A stretch of DNA of 64,000 nt from a virus. Every line of letters begins with the position of its first letter. The stretch's first letter is position 1. The position numbers were made by a program, and so were the translations under genes. Positions 5,862 through 55,845 of this stretch are shown one piece after another. Under the pieces are notes generated by a model. It made no database searches, had not been told where the DNA came from, and saw nothing but the letters and a program-made list of their open reading frames with translations. Location: IMG/VR virus record IMGVR_UViG_3300045391_000822, positions 1-64,000 of that record. The stretch is one strand, 5' to 3'.

Positions 5862-6698
5862 ATGGCGAAAGCAACGAAGACCAAGAAAGCAGGCAAGGGC
5901 AAGGACGTGAAGAAGGTCGTCAAAAAGGCGAAGACCGTTCCTGCTAAGTCGGCGAAGGCAACCAAGGTTGTGAAGAAGGCCGCTAAGGCGAGTAAGCCTG
6001 TGAAGTCTTCCAAGGCCCCGAAGTCTTCCAAGAAGACTACCAAGGCGGCAGCTCCGAAGTTCGCTTCGACCCCCAACGGTACGTTGTACATGCGAACCAT
6101 TGTCGCCACCACAGGCGAGAAGGTTGTGTCCAACGCAGTTGCTTATGAAATCGACGGCGTGTCGATTCCGAAGTCCCACGTCAAGGTTGTCATCGGTAAG
6201 ATCGTGTACCATGAGGTTCTGATTCCGATTGGTGAGATCAAGGAAATCAAGGACGTTAAGGGCATCACCGTGTACGTTACCGAAGCAGGACCCGTGGTCG
6301 TGCGTGACGAACAGTTCGTGTTCATCGTGAACGGCGGAAACCAACCGGTCCTGGAGTCGGAAGAATCTGACGAGGAAGAAGACGAGGATGACTCGGACGA
6401 TTCCGATGAAGAGGAAGACGAGGATGATGAATCTGAAGAAGATGAAGACGAAGTTGAAGTCGACGAGGATGACGAATCCGACGAAGACGAAGATGACGAC
6501 GATTCCGATGAAGAGGAAGACGAGGACGAAGACTCGGATGACGATGATGACGAAGTCTCCGTAGAAGATGAAGATGAGGAAGACGAAGATTCGGATGAAG
6601 ACGAGGACGATGAGTCTGACGAAGATTCCGATGATGACGAAGAAGATGAGGACGAGGAAGAAGACGATGATGACGGCGACGAGAAGCTGGACGTCTAA
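5862..6698 (+). CDS. histone H1-like basic N-terminus / very acidic C-terminus protein
   Basis: KA-rich first ~67 aa, beta-rich core, ~115-aa D/E tract. Confidence 0.8.
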   Translation: MAKATKTKKAGKGKDVKKVVKKAKTVPAKSAKATKVVKKAAKASKPVKSSKAPKSSKKTTKAAAPKFASTPNGTLYMRTIVATTGEKVVSNAVAYEIDGVSIPKSHVKVVIGKIVYHEVLIPIGEIKEIKDVKGITVYVTEAGPVVVRDEQFVFIVNGGNQPVLESEESDEEEDEDDSDDSDEEEDEDDESEEDEDEVEVDEDDESDEDEDDDDSDEEEDEDEDSDDDDDEVSVEDEDEEDEDSDEDEDDESDEDSDDDEEDEDEEEDDDDGDEKLDV

Positions 6699-6761
6699 GT
6701 CGTGAATGTGGTGTGGTCGGATTTATTTCTGACCACACCAATTCCTACATCTGGAGTCCTT

Positions 6762-7083: not shown

Positions 7084-7938
7084 GTGGAACAAACCACACC
7101 CGTAATCAGACTGGTAAAACACAAACAGTGGTACATACCAGCCGACGCTCAGGATTATCAGATTTTGGTAAACCTCGGTATACCGTCGACTCGAATCCAT
7201 GAAGATCAACGCGAGATAGTTAAGCATGTTGCCGAGCGTAAAGGTTATACGTTGCGTGGCAAACACTTTGAAACGGTGCTTGAAGAGTTCACCGAAGATC
7301 TTTACAAACGCTGGATGCGGTTCCCACACCGCAATGTAAAATTCAAGAAATCATCAATGATATTTTCAACCACTGACGCCGCCGCATTCAAACGGGCGCG
7401 GGACAAGTCGGTGCCTCTGCTTACTACAAAGCTCCAGGAGTTTTTCCAGCGATGGGGATTCGTGGGGGATTTCAAGTACAGCGAAAATCACGACAAGGTA
7501 CGCCTTGTCGTTGACTACAACTTCAGCTCATTCCGCAAGCCGGTGATAACGCTGAAGGAGAATCCTAAGGAGGTAACGAAGTCCGTTATCAACTTAGGCG
7601 GCAACCGATTGATCTTCTGGCGTGAAGATAAGCACCTGCACTGGGAAATCGAAACCAAGGCAGCGAACGAATGGCGCCCGCGTGTTAAAGGAAGTTGTCT
7701 TCATAGTGAGATGTCGGATCCAACTGATTCGATTATCCTGCTCATGCGCAGTTTGGATGAGACGGATTTGTCTCCGGACAAGTCCTTCGATAAGCAGATT
7801 GCAGCAGCATTTGCTGAACGAGATGCGGCCGTCGCCGAGAAGCTTCGTCTTCAAGAAGACCTTGCAAAAGCAAAGGAACGCATCGAGAGGTTGCGTAAAC
7901 CTAACGAAACTACCAACCATCCAGGGACGGATGTATGA
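7084..7938 (+). CDS. hypothetical protein
   Basis: 284-aa ORF, GGAG RBS, C-terminal coiled coil. Confidence 0.75.
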   Translation: MEQTTPVIRLVKHKQWYIPADAQDYQILVNLGIPSTRIHEDQREIVKHVAERKGYTLRGKHFETVLEEFTEDLYKRWMRFPHRNVKFKKSSMIFSTTDAAAFKRARDKSVPLLTTKLQEFFQRWGFVGDFKYSENHDKVRLVVDYNFSSFRKPVITLKENPKEVTKSVINLGGNRLIFWREDKHLHWEIETKAANEWRPRVKGSCLHSEMSDPTDSIILLMRSLDETDLSPDKSFDKQIAAAFAERDAAVAEKLRLQEDLAKAKERIERLRKPNETTNHPGTDV

Positions 7939-8355: not shown

Positions 8356-8431
8356 CGCCCTGTAGCTCAGCGGTTAGAGCTGCGGCCTCATAAGCCGTAG
8401 GTCGCGGGTTCGAATCCCGCCGGGGCGACCA
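8356..8431 (+). tRNA. tRNA with CAT anticodon, probably tRNA-Ile2
   Basis: full cloverleaf, loop CTCATAA, encoded CCA; anticodon stem/variable region (gcggc..gccgt aggtcg) identical to tRNA-Ile(GAT) at 46238, C4-G69. Confidence 0.85.
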
Positions 8432-30806: not shown

Positions 30807-31183
30807 TGGCAGATGTCTCCATCTATGCGGCGGCAACAGGAGCCGCATTCTGTTCCACCTTTCTCCGTGGATTCCAGAATAAGAATGTTGCTGCGGGACT
30901 GAAGAGTTTGGCGTTTGGTACAGGTTACTTGATGAACCTGGCTGATATTGCTTTAGTGTCGATCGTAGCCCACGTCGGTAGCGGAGCTGACATGTTTGCG
31001 GCACTCCAGGTCGGTGCAGTCTCTGCTGTGGGTGCTGGTGCCGGATACGTAGCAAGTATGAAGGTGCACGACATCTTGCTGAAGGAGAAATACAAGGCAG
31101 CTGAGAAGGCCGCGAAACAACAATTGAAAACTCGTGTGCGCAAGTACGTTCGTCGCGAGATGGAGAATAGTCATGTTGACTGA
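30806..31183 (+). CDS. membrane protein (paralog of 46672-47007)
   Basis: three hydrophobic helices, basic tail. Confidence 0.7.
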   Translation: MADVSIYAAATGAAFCSTFLRGFQNKNVAAGLKSLAFGTGYLMNLADIALVSIVAHVGSGADMFAALQVGAVSAVGAGAGYVASMKVHDILLKEKYKAAEKAAKQQLKTRVRKYVRREMENSHVD

Positions 31184-33086
31184 TACCAAGTTCTTAGAAT
31201 CTCTTTCTTTGGACAAGAAGAAAAAGTTATACAAGGAGGCTCTCCCGGCTTACGAGGTGGGAAACCCCCTTATGTCGGATAAGGTGTTCGATGCGCTTGA
31301 AAACCGAATCAAGCAAGAAGACCCTAACTGGTCTGCGTTGGCCAAGACTGGCGTGAAGATGAAGAAGATGAAGACTCCCTTGTATGAGCCTGCGCCTTCT
31401 CTAGGAAAGGTCTACCCAGAAGCAGCTAACAAATGGTTGGCTAAGAGCCCAGAAGCTCTTGTTCTCGCTGATAAGTTGGATGGTAGTTCAATTCAACTTT
31501 TGGCCGATAAAGGCCGTATCACCAAGATGATCACCCGTGGTGACGGTACCACGGGTCAGGATATATCGTTTCTACTACCTTACGTTAAGAGGTTGCCGTC
31601 GTCCTTGATCCTCAAAACCCCTCGTGTTATTCGCTGTGAAGCGATTATGAAGCAAGAAGTCTTTGAGAAGAAGTACGCGGAAAAGTATGATAATCCACGC
31701 AACTTGGTTGCTGGCATTCTCAATCGAAGTCTTAAGAGCGGAGAGAAGCCGGATCCTGCGATTAAGGATATCGATATAGTTGTGCTGGGTGTTTACGGCA
31801 TGACCAATTATGTTGGTTTGAATTGGGCTGAAAAATCAGGATTTCTGGTTGTTGAACATGAGGTGGTTTTCAATAAAGAGCTCAACGCTTTGAAACTGGG
31901 CAAGCTCCTGAAGGGAAGACGTGCAAACTCTCTCTACGAAATGGATGGCCTGGTACTTTCCGATGCCCTTTACGAATTCGGTTATGATTCAGCCGAAAAA
32001 CCAAAATGGGCAATTGCTTTCAAAGAAAACCTTAGTGAGGCAGACGCGCCTAAGACTAAGGTGGTTGATGTCATCTGGCAGACAAGTCATAACGGCCGCC
32101 TAATACCTAAGGTGCAGGTAGAGCCTGTTCGACTTGACGGTGCCAAGATAACATATGCGACAGTCCATAACGCTGAGTGGATGACGGAACGAGGAATCGG
32201 ACCTGGTGCAGTAATCCAAATCGTCCGTAGTGGAGGAGTGATCCCCAAGATCACCAACGTGATCAAGAAAGCGAGCAAGCTCAAGCTACCTGACGTAGCC
32301 TATGAGAAGAAAGGTGTCCATTTCGTGGCAACTGAAGAATCGTTGGAGTCGGAAACGAAATCCATTTATCGATTCTTGCTGAAATGTGGTGTAGAATCCA
32401 TCGCGTTGAAGACAGTTACGAAGCTGTACGAAGCAGGTACGATGGAGTCATACCTGGACTACGTGATCATGTCCCAGCGTGGTGCTGATGAAGACTTCAT
32501 CTTCGAAATGAAGAAGGCAGGATTCACGTTGAACACTACCAAACGTATCTGTGCTGAACTGGCAGCAAAGCTCAGCGTTATCGATGTTAATGCAGCAATG
32601 ATAGGTACAGGTTCGTTTGCTGAAGGTATTGGAGAGCGTCGACTGGACTTGATTAACAAGACTATCAGTACTGGACAGTTGTTGGATATGTCGAAGGAGT
32701 TCTCGACTAAGCAATTTGCTGAGACACTATCACAGATCAACGGTATTGGTCCGGTGGTGGCAAAGCAGATTGTAGAAGGTATACGCTCATTCCGCCGCAT
32801 ACATCTGCCTGAGCTTCAAAAGCGGGTAGAAGTAACGATACCCCGTTCTGTGAAAAGAGCACCTCGTGCAAAGAAAGGTATATGGGCAGGTAAGTTTGGT
32901 ACCTGGACTGGATACCGTAATAAGGATGAAGAATCACAGTTCGTTGCAAAGGGCGGACAGATAGTGTCGTTCGGTAGCAAGACTAACGTCTTGTTCATGA
33001 AAGAAGGTGGCAAGGCCAGTAGCAAGATCACGACGGCCAAGGCCAAGGGCATTAACGTTACTACCTGGGAAGAATTCCGTGGATGA
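31173..33086 (+). CDS. ligA: NAD-dependent DNA ligase
   Basis: KLDG, TRGDGTTGQD, NPRNLVAG, YEMDGLV, PKWAIAFK, OB fold, HhH, BRCT-like end. Confidence 0.93.
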   Translation: MLTDTKFLESLSLDKKKKLYKEALPAYEVGNPLMSDKVFDALENRIKQEDPNWSALAKTGVKMKKMKTPLYEPAPSLGKVYPEAANKWLAKSPEALVLADKLDGSSIQLLADKGRITKMITRGDGTTGQDISFLLPYVKRLPSSLILKTPRVIRCEAIMKQEVFEKKYAEKYDNPRNLVAGILNRSLKSGEKPDPAIKDIDIVVLGVYGMTNYVGLNWAEKSGFLVVEHEVVFNKELNALKLGKLLKGRRANSLYEMDGLVLSDALYEFGYDSAEKPKWAIAFKENLSEADAPKTKVVDVIWQTSHNGRLIPKVQVEPVRLDGAKITYATVHNAEWMTERGIGPGAVIQIVRSGGVIPKITNVIKKASKLKLPDVAYEKKGVHFVATEESLESETKSIYRFLLKCGVESIALKTVTKLYEAGTMESYLDYVIMSQRGADEDFIFEMKKAGFTLNTTKRICAELAAKLSVIDVNAAMIGTGSFAEGIGERRLDLINKTISTGQLLDMSKEFSTKQFAETLSQINGIGPVVAKQIVEGIRSFRRIHLPELQKRVEVTIPRSVKRAPRAKKGIWAGKFGTWTGYRNKDEESQFVAKGGQIVSFGSKTNVLFMKEGGKASSKITTAKAKGINVTTWEEFRG

Positions 33087-34568: not shown

Positions 34569-36371
34569 ATGAACCAAGAACGTAAGCAAGCCCTGATATC
34601 TCGTATCAATGCCGGAGATCATGATCTTACCATGATGTACTGCGCGCCTCTCTTGAAAGACGTGTACAAGGTAGGTCACATCTTTCAATATCCGGACAAC
34701 ACGCAGTTGGTCTACTCGAATATGACACCACGTTCAGACAAACATCTACGTGGTCGCGTAAACGAACGGGTATACGATCAGAAATCTGTTTTCTTCGGCC
34801 TGCAAGGCTTCATAATCGAAGTCTTGATGGATCATTGGAACAAGACTTTCTTTCATCGTTCGTGGTCTGAAGTAGGTGACGTGTACAAGCGTTATGTAGA
34901 TGCTGTCCTGAATACAGATTTTCCGGTCGATCATATCAAGGCGCTTCACAAGCTGGGGTACCTTCCGATTGAAATCCGAGCCTTACCGGAAGGTACGTTG
35001 GTGCCCTTTAAGATTCCTGTGTATACGGTGCACAATACGAATCCTAACTTCGGGTGGGTAACCAATATGTTGGAAACGGTCATGAGCTCCGATACATGGA
35101 AGCCTGCAACGGTGGCCACGTTGGCCTATAACTTCCGACGGACACTTGATTACTGGGCGGAAAAGACTGGTGGCATATCAGCCCTGCTTCAATGGCAAGG
35201 CCATGACTTCAGTTTCCGTGGTATGTCCAATCATCAGGATGCTGCGGCTTGTGGTGTTGGCCATCTTTGCTCGTTTTCTGGAACCGATACGTTGCCGAGT
35301 ATTGCGCGTGCAGAATTCTTGTATGGTGCGGACGTAAACAAACAGATTGTCGGTGGCTCCGTTAATGCTACGGAACATTCCGTCATGTGTATCAATGGTG
35401 GTGATGGCGAGTTGGAGACATACAAACGTCTCTTGCAAAAATACCCCACAGGTATTCTCAGTATCGTCAGCGATAGCTTCGATCTGTGGCAAGTTATCAA
35501 CGAATGGGCGCCGGGACCGCTTCGTAGCCTCATTGAAGGCCGTCAAGGTAAGGTGGTGTTCCGCCCGGATAGCGGCAATCCTGCTGATATCCTTTGCGGT
35601 ACGGTTCGTGGAATACCAAATCATTCTCAGCAAGAACTGTTCTTTGCCTATGGAGAAGCTCTGGGTACCGAAACCTTGGTTAAGGAAGTCCGTGAGGAAT
35701 ATTTCTACGTTTATTGCGTAGAAGACGATACCTATTATAAGGTCGTCGTTAAAGATGATGCCGTGGCAGAATTCGGTATGTATTTTCTTATACAAGGAGT
35801 TTTTGATGCAGACATTACGCCCGAAATGCGTGGCGTTGTAGACTGCCTGGGTTACCATTTTGGTACGGTCACCAATGAAAAGGGCTACAATGACCTTGCA
35901 GCTTGTGTTGGTACTATCTACGGTGACAGTATCAATCCTCGTCTCTTCGATGAAATCCTGAAGCGACTGGCTGACAAAGGATATAGCTCCAACTGCGTTG
36001 TCGTCGGTATCGGTAGCTACAGCTATCAGTACATGACCCGTGATACTTTGGGCTCGGCTGTTAAAGCCACCTTTGGTGTTGTTGGTGGTGTCGGTCGAGG
36101 GATCCTTAAAGATCCGAAGACAGGTGACGGTATAAAGAAAAGCGCCTATGGGCTCCTGACTGTGGCCGATATGGCAGGTGGAGGGCAAGAGCCTCTACTG
36201 GAATTGATGGACGGCGAAGTAGATATCCCTGCCGAAGCTGTCTTCGAAGGTAACTTCGACAGTGGAGAGTTGAAACCTGTCTTCCGCAATGGGCATCTAC
36301 TGAAGTTCCAGACCTTGTCCGAGATTCGTATGCGCCTGCATGGTTGGGATGATAGCATTCCTTCTCTGTAG
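34569..36371 (+). CDS. NAMPT-like phosphoribosyltransferase (candidate Namat)
   Basis: DVYKVGH, HDFSFRG, GTDT, ATEHSVM, SIVSDS, RPDSG, IYGDSI, KDPKTGDGIKKSA. Confidence 0.9.
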   Translation: MNQERKQALISRINAGDHDLTMMYCAPLLKDVYKVGHIFQYPDNTQLVYSNMTPRSDKHLRGRVNERVYDQKSVFFGLQGFIIEVLMDHWNKTFFHRSWSEVGDVYKRYVDAVLNTDFPVDHIKALHKLGYLPIEIRALPEGTLVPFKIPVYTVHNTNPNFGWVTNMLETVMSSDTWKPATVATLAYNFRRTLDYWAEKTGGISALLQWQGHDFSFRGMSNHQDAAACGVGHLCSFSGTDTLPSIARAEFLYGADVNKQIVGGSVNATEHSVMCINGGDGELETYKRLLQKYPTGILSIVSDSFDLWQVINEWAPGPLRSLIEGRQGKVVFRPDSGNPADILCGTVRGIPNHSQQELFFAYGEALGTETLVKEVREEYFYVYCVEDDTYYKVVVKDDAVAEFGMYFLIQGVFDADITPEMRGVVDCLGYHFGTVTNEKGYNDLAACVGTIYGDSINPRLFDEILKRLADKGYSSNCVVVGIGSYSYQYMTRDTLGSAVKATFGVVGGVGRGILKDPKTGDGIKKSAYGLLTVADMAGGGQEPLLELMDGEVDIPAEAVFEGNFDSGELKPVFRNGHLLKFQTLSEIRMRLHGWDDSIPSL

Positions 36372-46154: not shown

Positions 46155-46237
46155 TGTGCTGTAGCTCAGAGGCCGAGTAGCCTTACCATCAAATCGACGT
46201 AAGGCCGACGTGGGTTCGATTCCCACCAGCACTCCCT
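46155..46237 (+). ncRNA. tRNA-like RNA with enlarged anticodon arm
   Basis: D and T arms canonical; 7-bp stem with 12-nt loop; no CCA. Confidence 0.55.
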
Positions 46238-48227: not shown

Positions 48228-49015
48228 CCCCGGGTGATGAAATGGGTAGACGTAGGAGACTTTAACTTATTGAGCACCACCGAAAAATGATTGGTAGTCA
48301 GTCTGCGACACAGAGATAGTGCTTAACGGCATAAAGCGAAAGCTTCAGATAATCTGACTCCGATGGTAAGACGTACGCGCAGAGGCGTAACATTCAATCG
48401 AAAGACGGTAAAACAGTTGTTGGCTTCTTTGCTTGGAATAACACCCACCTACGAACAACGAACGCCGGAATGATTAAGTTAAATCTTAATTGGGACGGAA
48501 CTAAGCGTAGGCCGGTGCCAGGTTAACAGCAATGATTGGGTGAATGGAATCAAAGTCGGCGAATGCTTTATGGTAATGAGACAAGCGAAGGCCAGCATCT
48601 TAAGATGCAAGAGTGCAGACCTTGTAAATTCCTGCTAACGCCGAGCCAAGCCTGAGAAAGTCGGGTTCAAAGTCCGAGGCCCTGTAAGAGGGATATAGCA
48701 TAGATGGAAATGCGCTCAGGAAGGTGTAGAGACTAAACGGTTCCCTCCTAAGATAGGCGACTAGCTCCATGTGTTACGGAGCTACCGCGGTAATTCCGGT
48801 AGGCCTAATTAAATCCTGCCTTATTACGGAGAAGACATAGTCCAGACCATCAAACTTTTATGGCGCCATAGGTCGAAAGCGGCAAATTTGTCGCCTGTTA
48901 AAACGGCGTCTTAGCGTTGGTTTATCTAGACCAACGGAGAAGGTAGCGAAAGCTATAGTGGTACGAAAATCTCCCGCCTTAGGGCGTACCGGTTCGAGTC
49001 CGGTCCCGGGGACCA
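48228..49015 (+). tRNA. tRNA-Leu(TAA), split by intron (exons 48228-48262 and 48966-49015)
   Basis: joined exons give ccccggg/cccgggg acceptor, ggaga-CTTAAAA-tctcc anticodon arm, variable arm, T arm, ACCA. Confidence 0.9.
48263..48965 (+). mobile_element. group I intron (IC3 / trnL-UAA type), 703 nt, no homing endonuclease ORF
   Basis: U before 5' splice site, IGS ttgag, P aaagtcggcgaa, Q taacgccgagccaagcc, R ggaaggtgtagagactaaacgg, S aagacatagtcc, P9 tagcgaaagcta, terminal G. Confidence 0.9.
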
Positions 49016-50195: not shown

Positions 50196-50283
50196 GGGTG
50201 AATGGCTGAGAGGTCTAAGGCGGCAGTCTTGAAAACTGATGAGTGTAAAAGCTCCGTGGGTTCGAATCCTACTTCACCCGCCA
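50196..50283 (+). tRNA. tRNA-Ser(TGA)
   Basis: loop CTTGAAA, long variable arm, G73, CCA. Confidence 0.93.
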
Positions 50284-52371: not shown

Positions 52372-52444
52372 CTCGCGTGGTCAGGTAGGTTATGTGATGG
52401 ATTGCAATCCATCTAGACTGGTTCGATTCCAGTACGCGAGTCCA
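52372..52444 (+). tRNA. tRNA-Cys(GCA), 6-nt anticodon loop
   Basis: atgga-TTGCAA-tccat, U73, CCA. Confidence 0.75.
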
Positions 52445-52994: not shown

Positions 52995-53032
52995 GTGATT
53001 CCGTAAATAATATGGAGTCGCTTTTCAACTAC

Positions 53033-53104
53033 TTGGTGGCGAGGGCTATCGGTTACTTCCAGACTTTGAATCTGACCAAAACACCGTTGCTAATTATTCC
53101 CCAA
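53033..53104 (+). ncRNA. Y RNA-like 1 (minimal, single hairpin)
   Basis: GGTGGCGAG..GTTACTTC..TATTCCCC ends; caga-CTTTGAA-tctg hairpin. Confidence 0.7.
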
Positions 53105-53157
53105 GTAGCTGAAAAGCGATTCCGTAAATAACTGTGAAGAAGTTATCTTTGATTCTA

Positions 53158-53296
53158 GCAGTGGCGTAGCTGTGCAGTTACTTCGACTGTTAATCGAGTG
53201 GTCGCAGGTTCGAGTCCTGTCACTGCGTAAGTGGTGTAGCTCAGTTGGATAGAGCACTTGGCCGAAAGGCCGTTCCTGCAGGCGAGGGTTCCCTGC
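53158..53296 (+). ncRNA. Y RNA-like 2 (YrlA type)
   Basis: CAGTGGCGTAG..GTTACTTC, CTGTTAA loop, T arm, closed acceptor stem, D arm, GTTCCCTG. Confidence 0.85.
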
Positions 53297-53331
53297 TAGA
53301 ATCAAAGATAATTTAGACTGTTATGATGTGT

Positions 53332-53456
53332 GCGGTGGTGAAGTATACGATTCCATCTCAACCAGTGGGTCGCGGGTTCGAGTCCCGTCTATCCGTCAGG
53401 ATAGTAGATCAGTTGGTAGATCAACCGGCAATTAATCGTACACGATTGTTCCCCGC
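53332..53456 (+). ncRNA. Y RNA-like 3 (YrlA type)
   Basis: CGGTGGTGAAG..., T arm, ctatcc-gtca-ggatag, D arm, TGTTCCCCG. Confidence 0.8.
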
Positions 53457-53487
53457 ACACATCATAGCAGTCTCAGAGTTTTAGTTT

Positions 53488-53633
53488 AGCAGTGGCGTAG
53501 ATAACAGTTACTTCGCATGGAAAGCCGGTACCGTAAGGTTGCGCTAGTTCGAATCTAGCCCCTCCCAAATCTGTGGGAGGGTAGGGAAGTGGATAAACCC
53601 GCCGTAACGTTCTGTTGTCGTTTGTTCCCTGCT
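53488..53633 (+). ncRNA. Y RNA-like 4 (YrlA type, Ser-like)
   Basis: CAGTGGCGTAG..GTTACTTC, ATGGAAA loop, long variable arm, T arm, closed acceptor, D arm, TGTTCCCTG. Confidence 0.82.
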
Positions 53634-53635
53634 TT

Positions 53636-53711
53636 ACATCCATCGTCTAGAGGCCTAGGACACTGCCCTTTCACGGCAGGTACGCGGGTTCGAATCCCGC
53701 TGGGTGTGCCA
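53636..53711 (+). tRNA. tRNA-Glu(TTC)
   Basis: loop CTTTCAC, G73, CCA. Confidence 0.93.
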
Positions 53712-53782
53712 GTTTAGGCTCCTTGTTTCACGGACATGCTAGTCCGAGGTTTTGAAACTGGAACAAGGAGTCCTTCTTAGTT

Positions 53783-53890
53783 TTGCAGTGGCGTAATTAA
53801 TCGAGTTCATCGCTAATTGGATAAGCACTGGGGCTTGGTCCCAGTTTAGTGGTTCGATTCCACGCTCTCGATAATGTCTGTTCCCTGCAA
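53783..53890 (+). ncRNA. Y RNA-like 5 (arms in canonical D-anticodon-T order)
   Basis: CAGTGGCGTAA..., D arm, ctggg-GCTTGGT-cccag, T arm, TGTTCCCTG. Confidence 0.75.
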
Positions 53891-53902
53891 ATTGATTTAT
53901 GT

Positions 53903-53978
53903 GGTGCGTTAGCTCAGTTGGTAGAGCGCTGGATTGTCTATCCAGAAGTCAGGAGTTCGAGCCTCCTACGCATCGCCA
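53903..53978 (+). tRNA. tRNA-Asp(GTC)
   Basis: loop TTGTCTA (U37), G73, CCA. Confidence 0.9.
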
Positions 53979-54073
53979 AGTTTGGACCACCAGCTTGTTA
54001 ACTGAATCTGATTCATATGGCTCAGCGCGCTAGTGACCAGCTTTTTTGTAGAAGCTGGTGGTCCTACTAGTTT

Positions 54074-54189
54074 GGTAGTGGCGTAGTTAGTCGGTTACTT
54101 CTTTGCAAGAGAATGCTAGGTTCGATTCCTGGTGCGGCCGGAAGGCTGTAGGCATGGCGCCAACTACCCGACAACGTTTGTTCCCTACC
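54074..54189 (+). ncRNA. Y RNA-like 6 (YrlA type, reduced D arm)
   Basis: TAGTGGCGTAG..GTTACTTC, TTGCAAG loop, T arm, tgcggcc-ggaa-ggctgta, TGTTCCCTA. Confidence 0.8.
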
Positions 54190-54372
54190 TACCCTGTCTC
54201 TGTTTCTGCCTGACGCAGAGATACGCGCTGTCAAGTTCTTGTAGACCCGGTGGGGCCGGCACCTATGAGGATTTGACAGCGCATCTTTTTGGGGTTGGTG
54301 AGGAAGTTGAACGTCTACGAACTACCGAAGTTCGTTCTTTCATCTGTCACTCTTCACTACAAAGGAGCCAAA

Positions 54373-55845
54373 ATGGCCCACCTCAACCGTAAAGCTGATC
54401 CGCATCGTAAAGCGGTAACCAAAGAATCTGTCCTTAACAATGCTCCGTTCGAGCAACTTTCCCGTGCAGTGATGACCTGCCTGCTGTGGGAAGGTACTGA
54501 AGACGAACGCATATCCAAGCTCGTTCCCAGCGTTCCGCTGGAAGATGTAGCGTACCTGGCACGGACGGCACATGAAGATATGAAGCTGCGCCATGTGCCG
54601 CTACTCCTGGCTCGGGAAATGGCGCGCCATCCAGGTCGTGTGGAAAATCCTTCCGTCATCGCGAACACGATTGAAGCGGTTATCAACCGTCCTGATTCAT
54701 TGACGGAATTCCTGGCTATCTATTGGAAGGATGGACGTCAGCCATTGTCAGGCCAGGTAAAGAAAGGTCTGGCTCGCGCATTTGCAAAATTCAGCGAGTA
54801 TCAACTAGCGAAGTACAATCGTGATCACGAAGTGAAGTTGCGCGACGTGCTCTTCCTTTCACATGCAAAGCCGAAAGACGTTGAACCTGGTTCTGCTTTG
54901 TGGAATAAGGATGCGCGTACCAACTACAAACCAAACAAGGGGTTTGTACGCGAGTTCACGAAAGGCGAACTCCTGTATGGTCGAGTAGTTCACGATCAGT
55001 TGGTTTCCCCAGAAACGTGGGAAAACAAGCTGTCACGCGGCAAAGACAAGAAAGAAACGTTTGCTGATTTGATGAAGAGTGGTAAGTTGGGAGGCCTGGC
55101 TTTCCTGCGTAACCTGCGCAATATCAAAGAAGCCGGCATATCTAAGGATGTGGTCAATAGCTATGCAGATGTAGCCAAGGTTGATGGAATCCTGCCTTTC
55201 CAGTTCATGTCTGCGCAACGTGCAGTTCCTGAATGGGAAGATGCCATCGAGAAGATGATGCTCCGCGCAGTGGAGAACATTCCCAAACTACCAGGACGCA
55301 CGGTGTTGGTTGTGGACTTGTCGGGTTCCATGAGAGCGCAGATGGCAGATAAGTCGGGATTGGAACGTACTGATGTAGCGGCAGCATTCAGTGTTCTGTG
55401 CCGTGAACTGTGCGAGAACATTGCAGTGTTTGCTACGGCAGGTAACGACCATAGCCGGAAGCACGCTACGATAACTGTTCCGCCGCGTCGTGGATTTGCT
55501 TTGGCAGAAAAGCTGCGTGTTGGTGGAGATCAAGAAATCTATCGTCGCATTGGCCAAGGCGGTATTTTCCTTAAGCAGGTTACGGAGTTCGTTTCTGGCA
55601 CCCTTGGTGATCAAGATGTCGAACGTTGTATCGTCATCACTGACGAACAGGATACGGATATCGACGGAACTTCTGCGAAAGCAAAGTTGATCGGTAAACA
55701 CAACTACATCGTCAACATCGCGACGAACGCTCGAGGTATCGGTTACGGACGTTTCACCCATATCAATGGATGGTCCGAAGCTGTACTGAAGTTCATCGCA
55801 GCCTATGAAGCGAACGAAGAAACGATGCACAAAGGTGCAGCTTAA
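54373..55845 (+). CDS. rsr: Ro60/Rsr TROVE-vWA RNA-binding protein
   Basis: EQLSRAVMTCLLWE, LRHVP, FSEYQLAKY, KLRDVLFLSHAKP, TWE, AFLRNLRN, VVDLSGSM (MIDAS), ITDEQ, GWSE; AAGGAG RBS. Confidence 0.92.
   Translation: MAHLNRKADPHRKAVTKESVLNNAPFEQLSRAVMTCLLWEGTEDERISKLVPSVPLEDVAYLARTAHEDMKLRHVPLLLAREMARHPGRVENPSVIANTIEAVINRPDSLTEFLAIYWKDGRQPLSGQVKKGLARAFAKFSEYQLAKYNRDHEVKLRDVLFLSHAKPKDVEPGSALWNKDARTNYKPNKGFVREFTKGELLYGRVVHDQLVSPETWENKLSRGKDKKETFADLMKSGKLGGLAFLRNLRNIKEAGISKDVVNSYADVAKVDGILPFQFMSAQRAVPEWEDAIEKMMLRAVENIPKLPGRTVLVVDLSGSMRAQMADKSGLERTDVAAAFSVLCRELCENIAVFATAGNDHSRKHATITVPPRRGFALAEKLRVGGDQEIYRRIGQGGIFLKQVTEFVSGTLGDQDVERCIVITDEQDTDIDGTSAKAKLIGKHNYIVNIATNARGIGYGRFTHINGWSEAVLKFIAAYEANEETMHKGAA

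Follow-up and report, generated by a model that had tools for sequence, protein, structure and literature searches.

A split tRNA-Leu(UAA) gene with a group I core

The stretch of DNA analysed here (the window) comprises the first 64 kb of a 155.6-kb virus contig, IMG/VR record IMGVR_UViG_3300045391_000822, whose completeness was estimated at 66%. Between positions 48228 and 49015 it carries a gene for tRNA-Leu(UAA) that is interrupted by a group I intron of 703 nucleotides (nt). When introns were allowed, ARAGORN reported over this interval a single tRNA with a 703-nt insert; standard ARAGORN and the Rfam tRNA model found nothing between the end of the tRNA-Leu(UAG) gene (48210) and position 50196. 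Joining both exons by script gave an 85-nt class II tRNA-Leu(UAA) whose 7-bp acceptor stem is perfect and whose variable arm is long, with the anticodon loop CUUAAAA, A73 and an encoded CCA. The intronless tRNA-Leu(UAA) of Pseudomonas phage phi30-3, also of 85 nt, corresponds to exon 1 (35 nt, positions 1-35 in the alignment) followed by exon 2 (50 nt) with neither gap nor overlap, and the two are identical across the junction. This intronless homologue defines the exon junction, and the proposal of a first-pass annotation of the window, that removing 48263-48965 restores a tRNA-Leu(UAA), is borne out by the cloverleaf and by the colinear homologue.

The intron is inserted between U34 and A35 of the tRNA, in the context CUU/...G/AAAA (slashes mark the splice sites). 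To place the junctions, the rule for group I introns was applied, namely that a U precedes the 5' site and that the last intron base is a G. The insertion after U34, as first annotated, agrees with this rule and with the intronless homologue; ARAGORN itself placed the insert one base too far to the left, which yields a 'Phe GAA' tRNA. The first-pass annotation had also considered a shift of the register by one base. Splicing one base earlier would produce a 'Phe GAA' tRNA whose variable arm is long and leave a C at the end of the intron, and splicing one base later would give an anticodon loop of 8 nt; both registers were discarded because of the terminal-G rule, the 57 relatives that are all spliced after CUU, and the intronless homologue. 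A normal tRNA-Phe(GAA) is already encoded by the phage (47013-47090). The contig also encodes tRNA-Leu(GAG) and tRNA-Leu(UAG), no second tRNA-Leu with a UAA anticodon was found on its 155 kb, and UUA can be read on this contig by the tRNA of the split gene only. Together, UUA and UUG make up 33% of the leucine codons in the long open reading frames (ORFs) of the phage.

The helices that define a group I intron can be read directly in the insert (Table 1). U34 (48262) and G 48272 form the wobble pair of P1 at the 5' splice site, and the two U that precede the GAG of the guide can pair with A35 and A36 to form P10. The P1 columns (C-G, U-A, U.G) are invariant across 38 relatives. In addition, an 11-nt GAAA-receptor motif of near-canonical form lies in P8 (48747-52/48825-29).

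A family-specific covariance model, R1, was trained on 38 compact trnL introns of phages; it matched the window only once in its 64 kb (46.4 bits, E 1.2e-11, 48500-48878) and aligned P3, P4, P5, P6, P7 and P8 at high posterior. The full Rfam model Intron_gpI (RF00028, model positions 1-253) aligned to 48470-48863 with 21.3 bits, which corresponds to an E-value of 0.006 over 951 nt and of 2.2e-4 over the genome. RNAalifold, applied to the 38 compact relatives with their exons, proposed 71 pairs, 47 of them with compensatory changes, which span P1-P5, P8, P9, P9b and every tRNA stem, even the anticodon stem, whose strands lie on either side of the intron. Every one of these helices is retained in the window, several through compensatory changes (P3, the inner pairs of P4, and P8). 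Enforcing the core costs 9.6 kcal/mol (-193.1 vs -202.7 kcal/mol for the free minimum). No other known RNA family was detected inside the intron, since Intron_gpI was the only Rfam match with E<1; a nested second ribozyme or RNA family was also considered and rejected, the sole extra match being sucC at chance level (E 6.7). By its core helices P3-P8, its U.G wobble and its terminal G, the intron is a genuine member of group I. The first-pass annotation had reached the same identification, which the fit to R1 upholds, and its P3, P7, P9 and terminal G lie where the direct reading of the pairs places them.

Table 1. Position of the exons, core helices and peripheral modules in the window
Feature	Position	Strand	Remarks
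Exon 1 of tRNA-Leu(UAA)	48228..48262	+	acceptor 5' strand, D arm, anticodon stem 5' strand, C32 U33 U34
Group I intron, 703 nt, ORF-less	48263..48965	+	terminal G = 48965
Internal guide sequence / P1	48270..48274	+	GAG 48272-74 pairs with C32 U33 U34
P2 domain	48275..48542	+	268 nt; compact relatives have about 30 nt; closing pairs CACC/GGUG
Conserved P2 module	48279..48409	+	recurs in 8 viral loci
P2 module, outer stem	48279-82/48406-09	+	covaries between loci; A-rich joiner next
P2 module, helix	48288-93/48391-96	+	one U-U mismatch in the window
P2 module, conserved internal loop	48294-99/48384-91	+	flanks 84-nt variable insert 48300-48383
P2 module, mini-hairpin	48398-48405	+	two to three pairs, GAAA loop in every locus
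Second long P2 arm (P2.1-like)	48414..48537	+	124 nt, lineage-specific; predicted fold
P3	48546-51/48739-44	+	six pairs; covaries in relatives
P4	48556-61/48639-44	+	six pairs, next outer pair G-G
P5	48565-66/48634-35	+	67-nt extension 48567-48633; P4-P5 domain 48556..48644
P6	48645-47/48723-25	+	domain 48645..48725
P6 four-way junction (predicted)	48651-48720	+	minimum-energy fold of the isolated stretch and in the constrained whole-intron fold
P6 closing helix	48651-56/48715-20	+	six pairs; occupies the place of the anticodon stem
P6 T-arm-like hairpin	48661-77	+	five pairs, UUCAAAG loop
P6 capped hairpin	48680-92	+	acceptor-like cap
P6 UA and D-arm-like hairpin	48696-48713	+	four pairs, eight-base loop A-G-N-N-G-G-N-A
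P7	48731-35/48838-42	+	R and S elements; P7-P3'-P8 region 48731..48842
P8	48745-48/48828-31	+	72-nt extension 48753-48824
P9	48846-50/48958-62	+	domain 48846..48962; 86-nt insert 48856-48941
P9b	48943-56	+	conserved hairpin, GAAA loop; P9 and P9b covary in relatives
Terminal G	48965	+	last intron base
Exon 2	48966..49015	+	A35 A36, anticodon stem 3' strand, long variable arm, T arm
Exon 2, further parts	within 48966..49015	+	acceptor 3' strand, A73, CCA

The expanded periphery

The trnL(UAA) family is compact, with introns of about 200-300 nt and simple hairpins at P2, P5, P6, P8 and P9, and the intron of the window departs from this size. To locate the additional length, five segments were measured between fixed core motifs (P1-P3, P5, P6, P3'+P8 and P9). 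In the window they reach 289, 81, 72, 102 and 122 nt, against medians of 46, 22, 14, 38 and 41 nt in 54 compact relatives, so that all five domains named as expanded in the first-pass annotation are longer than in these relatives. That annotation had also reported no ORF of 60 amino acids (aa) or more, in agreement with our finding that the largest ORF overlapping the intron has 56 aa and lies on the minus strand. None of the six longest intron ORFs matched Pfam or PHROG, and no homing endonuclease is encoded in the intron. An origin of the inserts from repeats or mobile elements was rejected, as no further copy of any part of the intron occurs in the 155-kb genome. The second P2 arm and the extensions of P5, P8 and P9 showed no homologues among all the fetched loci, nor was a close relative with the same expansions found among the loci searched. 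The novel elements of the intron are its ORF-free fivefold expansion, a P2 module seen in viral contigs only, and a module in P6 that resembles the elbow of a tRNA.

The P2 domain is the largest of the additions, and the stretch that contains it, 48275-48545, is more stable than its shuffled versions (z -2.94; 2 of 200 shuffles equally good). Its conserved module was found again at viral loci L125, L126, L128, L134, L137, L138, L139 and L140, with a variable hairpin that ranges from 4 to 117 nt. Eight of the ten matches of an 18-base pattern of the module in viral contigs were genuine introns; the same pattern gave ten matches in 185,579 prokaryote genomes, all of them by chance. Part of the 84-nt insert of the window (48305-48342) can be aligned with the minimal form of the module, that of L137, with 11 of 1000 shuffles scoring equally, and this part may be a degenerate nested copy, or duplication, of the module. 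Clamps between a tetraloop and its receptor are established for the Azoarcus and Anabaena-type introns. By analogy with them, the GAAA loop of the P2 module probably docks on the receptor motif of P8, and the presence of GAAA loops in both the P2 module and P9b, together with this receptor, suggests tetraloop-receptor clamps.

A different kind of addition is observed in P6, where the predicted four-way junction presents, in this order, a T arm, an acceptor-like cap, U8-A9 and a D arm. In the folding model its elements are arranged as in a circularly permuted tRNA. Of 200,000 shuffles of the intron, 30 had a T arm with such a D arm within the next 40 nt, and 1 had this combination when the UA was required as well. 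The phage also encodes Y-like RNAs, in an array at 53000-54200 (YrlA scores of 50.3 and 44.8 bits, with a cut-off of 69) upstream of a TROVE (Ro60-type) gene at 54289-55845. Three Y units of the window are built from a T arm, a six-pair hairpin, UA and a D arm, and a model made from three of the phage's own Y-RNA modules, R2, matched the P6 module over its full length (19.2 bits, E 0.0064). Leaving the three training modules aside, each R2 match with a higher score than P6 contains the T arm of a real tRNA, which in most of them is combined with the D arm of the neighbouring tRNA gene. T-arm-like hairpins were present in three expanded ORF-less introns (in P6 of the window, in P2 of L126 and in P8 of L138) and in none of about 55 compact ones.

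The P6 module has the permuted T arm, the capped hairpin, the D arm and the tRNA-invariant loop bases of the YrlA type. It lacks a Ro-binding stem, since its closing helix leads into P6, and neither the tRNA nor the YrlA model of Rfam matched it at E up to 10 when 100 nt were searched. Only four pairs of its cap are clean, its junction to the D arm exceeds that of the Y modules by one base, and the stability of the isolated fold is unremarkable (z -1.38). The module was present in none of 14 viral loci with medium-sized P6 inserts, a metagenome scan returned a single match that was an ordinary hairpin, and R2 matched inside no intron of the 10 loci with expanded introns.

Other tRNA-like and Y-RNA-like elements were seen at related loci. 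In L126 (minus strand, about 2300-2420), the variable hairpin of the P2 module of a trnL intron is a 117-nt insert, in which a perfect stem of 19 bp ends in a tRNA-like unit that has a D arm of the Leu type and a canonical T arm; here a tRNA gene has within its intron a domain shaped like a tRNA. On the minus strand of L138, Y-RNA-type modules lie at 7525-7578, 6690-6751 and 8374-8429 (57.2, 33.6 and 26.7 bits with R2).

With respect to the surroundings, the region 45.5-59 kb contains a tRNA cluster, a permuted tmRNA and the Y-like RNA array adjoining the TROVE gene. Two tRNA calls in the window are odd. Within 46155-46236, a tRNA at 46155-46234 scores only 36.5 bits in Rfam, and ARAGORN fits a 7-nt 'intron' in it; at 52372-52444, directly before tRNA-Ser(GCU), a 'tRNA-???' with a two-base anticodon is called. 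The GyrB-like protein of the phage shares 64-71% identity with those of the jumbo phages PaBG, Lu11, AD1 and SNUABM_7. Coding regions for a topoisomerase IB catalytic domain of eukaryotic type (PF01028; 41849-43519) and for an NAD-dependent DNA ligase (31134-33086), and a NAMPT/NAPRTase-like gene (34569-36371), are present in the same phage.

Splicing and competing explanations

From its membership of the family, we consider it very probable that the insert is an active self-splicing intron which restores the tRNA-Leu(UAA) of the phage. The split gene would be transcribed together with the surrounding tRNA cluster, and the intron would fold so that a free guanosine attacks after U34, held in P1 by the U.G wobble. 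The terminal G would next occupy the same site and the exons would be ligated, giving the 85-nt tRNA with its CCA already present. In such a scheme, the approximately 500 extra non-coding bases would form helices that extend the tips of P2, P5, P6, P8 and P9, which are the insertion-tolerant positions of the family, where relatives carry endonuclease genes; the P6 addition would copy the T-arm/D-arm elbow of a tRNA. Among several readings, the expansions may act as a structural periphery.

Several observations weigh against this interpretation. The Intron_gpI score of 21.3 bits is below the curated gathering threshold of 50 bits, a shortfall due to the five long inserts, which also cause R1 to misplace the ends, its alignment being clean for P3-P8 only. 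P1 is short, with three pairs followed by a U-U mismatch, and a G-G stands at the outermost position of P4. The z-score for the folding of the whole intron is only -1.44 and, since no close relative was found to share the expansions, energy prediction is the basis for their folds, the P2 module aside. Moreover, large peripheries can slow folding or make splicing dependent on proteins, and the locus is known from metagenomic DNA alone.

As regards the origin of the additional RNA, it could also have accumulated neutrally at loop tips that permit it, by slippage, by duplication and from inserts that have decayed, with no function other than leaving the fold unharmed. We regard this as possible, if on the doubtful side. 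The expansions are located exactly at the loop tips whose length varies in relatives, homologues among the fetched loci are lacking for all of them except the P2 module, part of the 84-nt insert resembles a degenerate nested copy of that module, and the G+C content of the intron (46.7%) is close to that of the genome (48.3%). However, phage genomes are compact, similar expansions are kept by a whole class of ORF-less trnL introns of 424-611 nt, and the stability of the P2 domain and the tRNA-invariant bases in P6 also speak against mere accretion.

According to another explanation, the excised intron or the unspliced precursor would be a working non-coding RNA whose periphery serves as a platform for RNA modules. 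As cargo, the mimic of the elbow in P6 would recruit or distract a factor that binds tRNAs, for example RNase P, a synthetase, a tRNA-modifying enzyme or a defence protein directed at tRNAs. This is rather unlikely in our estimation, even if several of the results described above point in its direction: the permuted T arm, UA and D arm are improbable by chance, R2 matches the P6 module in full, T-arm-like hairpins were seen in three expanded ORF-less introns and in no compact one, the P2 module of L126 bears a whole tRNA-like insert, and the phage has, 5 kb downstream, its Y-like RNA array and the gene of a Ro60-type protein. On the other hand, no second intron with the P6 module appeared in the viral and metagenome contigs searched, hence covariation lends it no support, and the silence of the Rfam models, the weak cap, the ordinary stability and the longer junction to the D arm speak against it as well. 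More speculative still, and in our opinion improbable, is the extension of this idea to a lineage of large phages in which the periphery of tRNA introns carries functional RNA modules, so that the 703-nt intron would be a non-coding RNA of several domains, with the Y-RNA-type elbow mimic exposed on its P6 arm and the conserved viral-contig module on its P2 arm, both acting on tRNA-handling or Ro60-linked machinery during infection. If true, splicing would release, for each tRNA made, one copy of the intron as a second product that serves as decoy or adaptor.

The intron could instead be a dead relic that has lost splicing, in which case the tRNA would not be made. The low Rfam score, the weak P1 and the very large periphery would fit such a decay, but the exons form a flawless cloverleaf with CCA, the core helices, their joining bases, the terminal G and the receptor motif are all intact, and the gene is the only one on the contig for a tRNA that reads UUA, which makes this highly unlikely. 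Least probable of all is an origin of the extra RNA from a homing endonuclease gene that has decayed, as two other large introns at the site, with HNH-like ORFs in P6, might suggest, since the additions are spread across five loops instead of one, tblastn with both HNH-like ORFs against the intron found nothing beyond shared core bases, no frame exceeds 56 aa or matches a family, and the largest addition, in P2, holds a conserved RNA module.

Relatives and comparison with known systems

A scan of viral contigs with the core pattern returned at least 119 loci, about 100 of them with an intron-split tRNA. At least 58 distinct trnL(UAA) introns were recognized among them, typically of about 200 nt, and all are spliced as CUU/...G/AAAA. 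The trnL(UAA) introns of phages are common in uncultured contigs and under-reported, and not exceptional. Among 50,697 GenBank phage records, the intron was found in Agrobacterium phage Atu_ph07, the only cultured phage, and in metagenome assemblies of huge phages. PaBG, AD1, Lu11 and SNUABM_7 gave no match with R1. A blastn search with the region against GenBank phages returned only tRNA pieces and Atu_ph07, and two neighbouring proteins used as queries retrieved no relatives in the viral contigs.

Cellular relatives were also detected. Within the cyanobacterial phylum, R1 matched 23 of 101 genomes (75-133 bits), and the best loci were introns of tRNA-Leu(UAA), tRNA-fMet and tRNA-Arg(CCU). 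Five cyanobacterial tRNA-Leu(UAA) introns, with the same insertion site, scored 114-125 bits. Since R1 matches both these introns and that of the window, the latter belongs to the same family, and the kinship with the cyanobacterial and plastid intron that had been proposed for it is supported. This family of introns in the anticodon loop of tRNAs is called IC3 in the literature. In a tree of 124 core columns, the cyanobacterial introns formed a clade of their own (100/99), with the window outside it in the free tree. The approximately unbiased (AU) test did not reject a placement of the window within the cyanobacterial clade (p 0.34), and likewise did not reject a clade of the window with the class of introns that carry the P2 module and are inserted after U33.

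In relation to previous work, a review of 2014 stated that all phage group I introns then known were in protein genes, despite the many tRNA genes of phages (PMC3984707). The first-pass annotation had stated that phage group I introns are mostly known from protein genes; this matches the review, but introns in tRNA genes are common in uncultured phage contigs, with at least 58 in trnL(UAA) alone. A survey from 2020 mapped 21 classes of tRNA group I introns in bacterial genomes (Williams 2020), and our search of the literature found no description of trnL(UAA) group I introns in phages.

These results have consequences for the annotation of phage genomes. The split tRNA-Leu(UAA) is invisible to standard tRNA finders, and the counterpart in Atu_ph07 is unannotated. 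Phage tRNA repertoires, and the arguments on codon supply based on them, are therefore systematically incomplete. The occurrence of at least 58 trnL(UAA) introns and of two insertion classes in viral contigs also contrasts with the picture of 2014, confined to protein genes. Furthermore, the intron of the window is a natural example of a minimal ribozyme core of the Azoarcus/Anabaena type bearing a periphery of about 500 nt free of ORFs. It offers a possible model for the way in which ribozymes acquire peripheral domains, and for asking whether phage introns, once excised, go on to a second life as RNAs.

Among the viral introns, that of Atu_ph07 (MF403008, 112936-113215) occupies a site identical to that of the window, with 83% identity in P9b and the 3' end; its R1 score is 177.7 bits, while Rfam Intron_gpI fails to detect it at E up to 1. 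In contrast to the intron of the window, it has 278 nt, only moderate extensions of P5 and P8, a plain P6 hairpin, and a simple GAAA-capped hairpin as P2 in place of the 268-nt domain. The split tRNA of this phage (about 112890-113250, minus strand; L002:1212-1573) has a 'hypothetical protein', AUZ94936.1, called over its exon 2.

The introns of L008 (652 nt) and L089 (682 nt) share the site and approach the total size of the intron of the window, and L008 also shares with it rare variants of the core in the segments flanking P7. However, a single P6 insert of about 470 nt, with the gene for an HNH-like endonuclease, accounts for their size, the other arms being compact (49, 22, 471, 30 and 43 nt, against 289, 81, 72, 102 and 122 nt). 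These HNH-like ORFs, of about 155-170 aa, lie on opposite strands relative to the intron (L008:7494-7955, plus; L089:13554-14063, minus), and their matches to Pfam HNH/HNH_3 are below the cut-off, with a clear H-N-H motif.

A second class, represented by L122, L125, L132, L126 and L138, is inserted after U33 (ACU/C...G/UAAAA). Its introns range from 424 to about 611 nt, have no ORF and present several expanded arms, and an expanded member gave no blastn match among GenBank phages. Three of them (L125, L126 and L138) have the conserved P2 module in common with the window. They differ from it in being inserted one base upstream, in the sequences of P3 and of the P7-P3 joining segment, and in their shorter length, and none has the T-arm/D-arm junction in P6.

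As for the P6 module, the YrlA-type Y RNA (RF02553; phage units 53204-53255, 53372-53422 and 53543-53602) has the same order of elements, closed by a helix, and the same tRNA-invariant bases in both loops. The P6 module is distinguished from it by being embedded in P6 of a ribozyme and by a sequence that is only about half identical.

The Lak megaphages contain unclassified, 'enigmatic' tRNA introns that were reported as the first for phages (Devoto et al., 10.1101/356790). As in the window, they reside in phage tRNA genes, and one of them was predicted to have a tRNA-like element; unlike the intron of the window, whose ribozyme core is explicit, they were not classed as group I and are much shorter.

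Finally, the cyanobacterial and plastid trnL(UAA) intron has the same tRNA, the same insertion point and the same core as the intron described here, and even the same GAAA-capped hairpin ahead of the 3' end. Yet the former has about 210-250 nt and is borne by cells, whereas the latter has 703 nt, is borne by a phage and carries five expanded domains.

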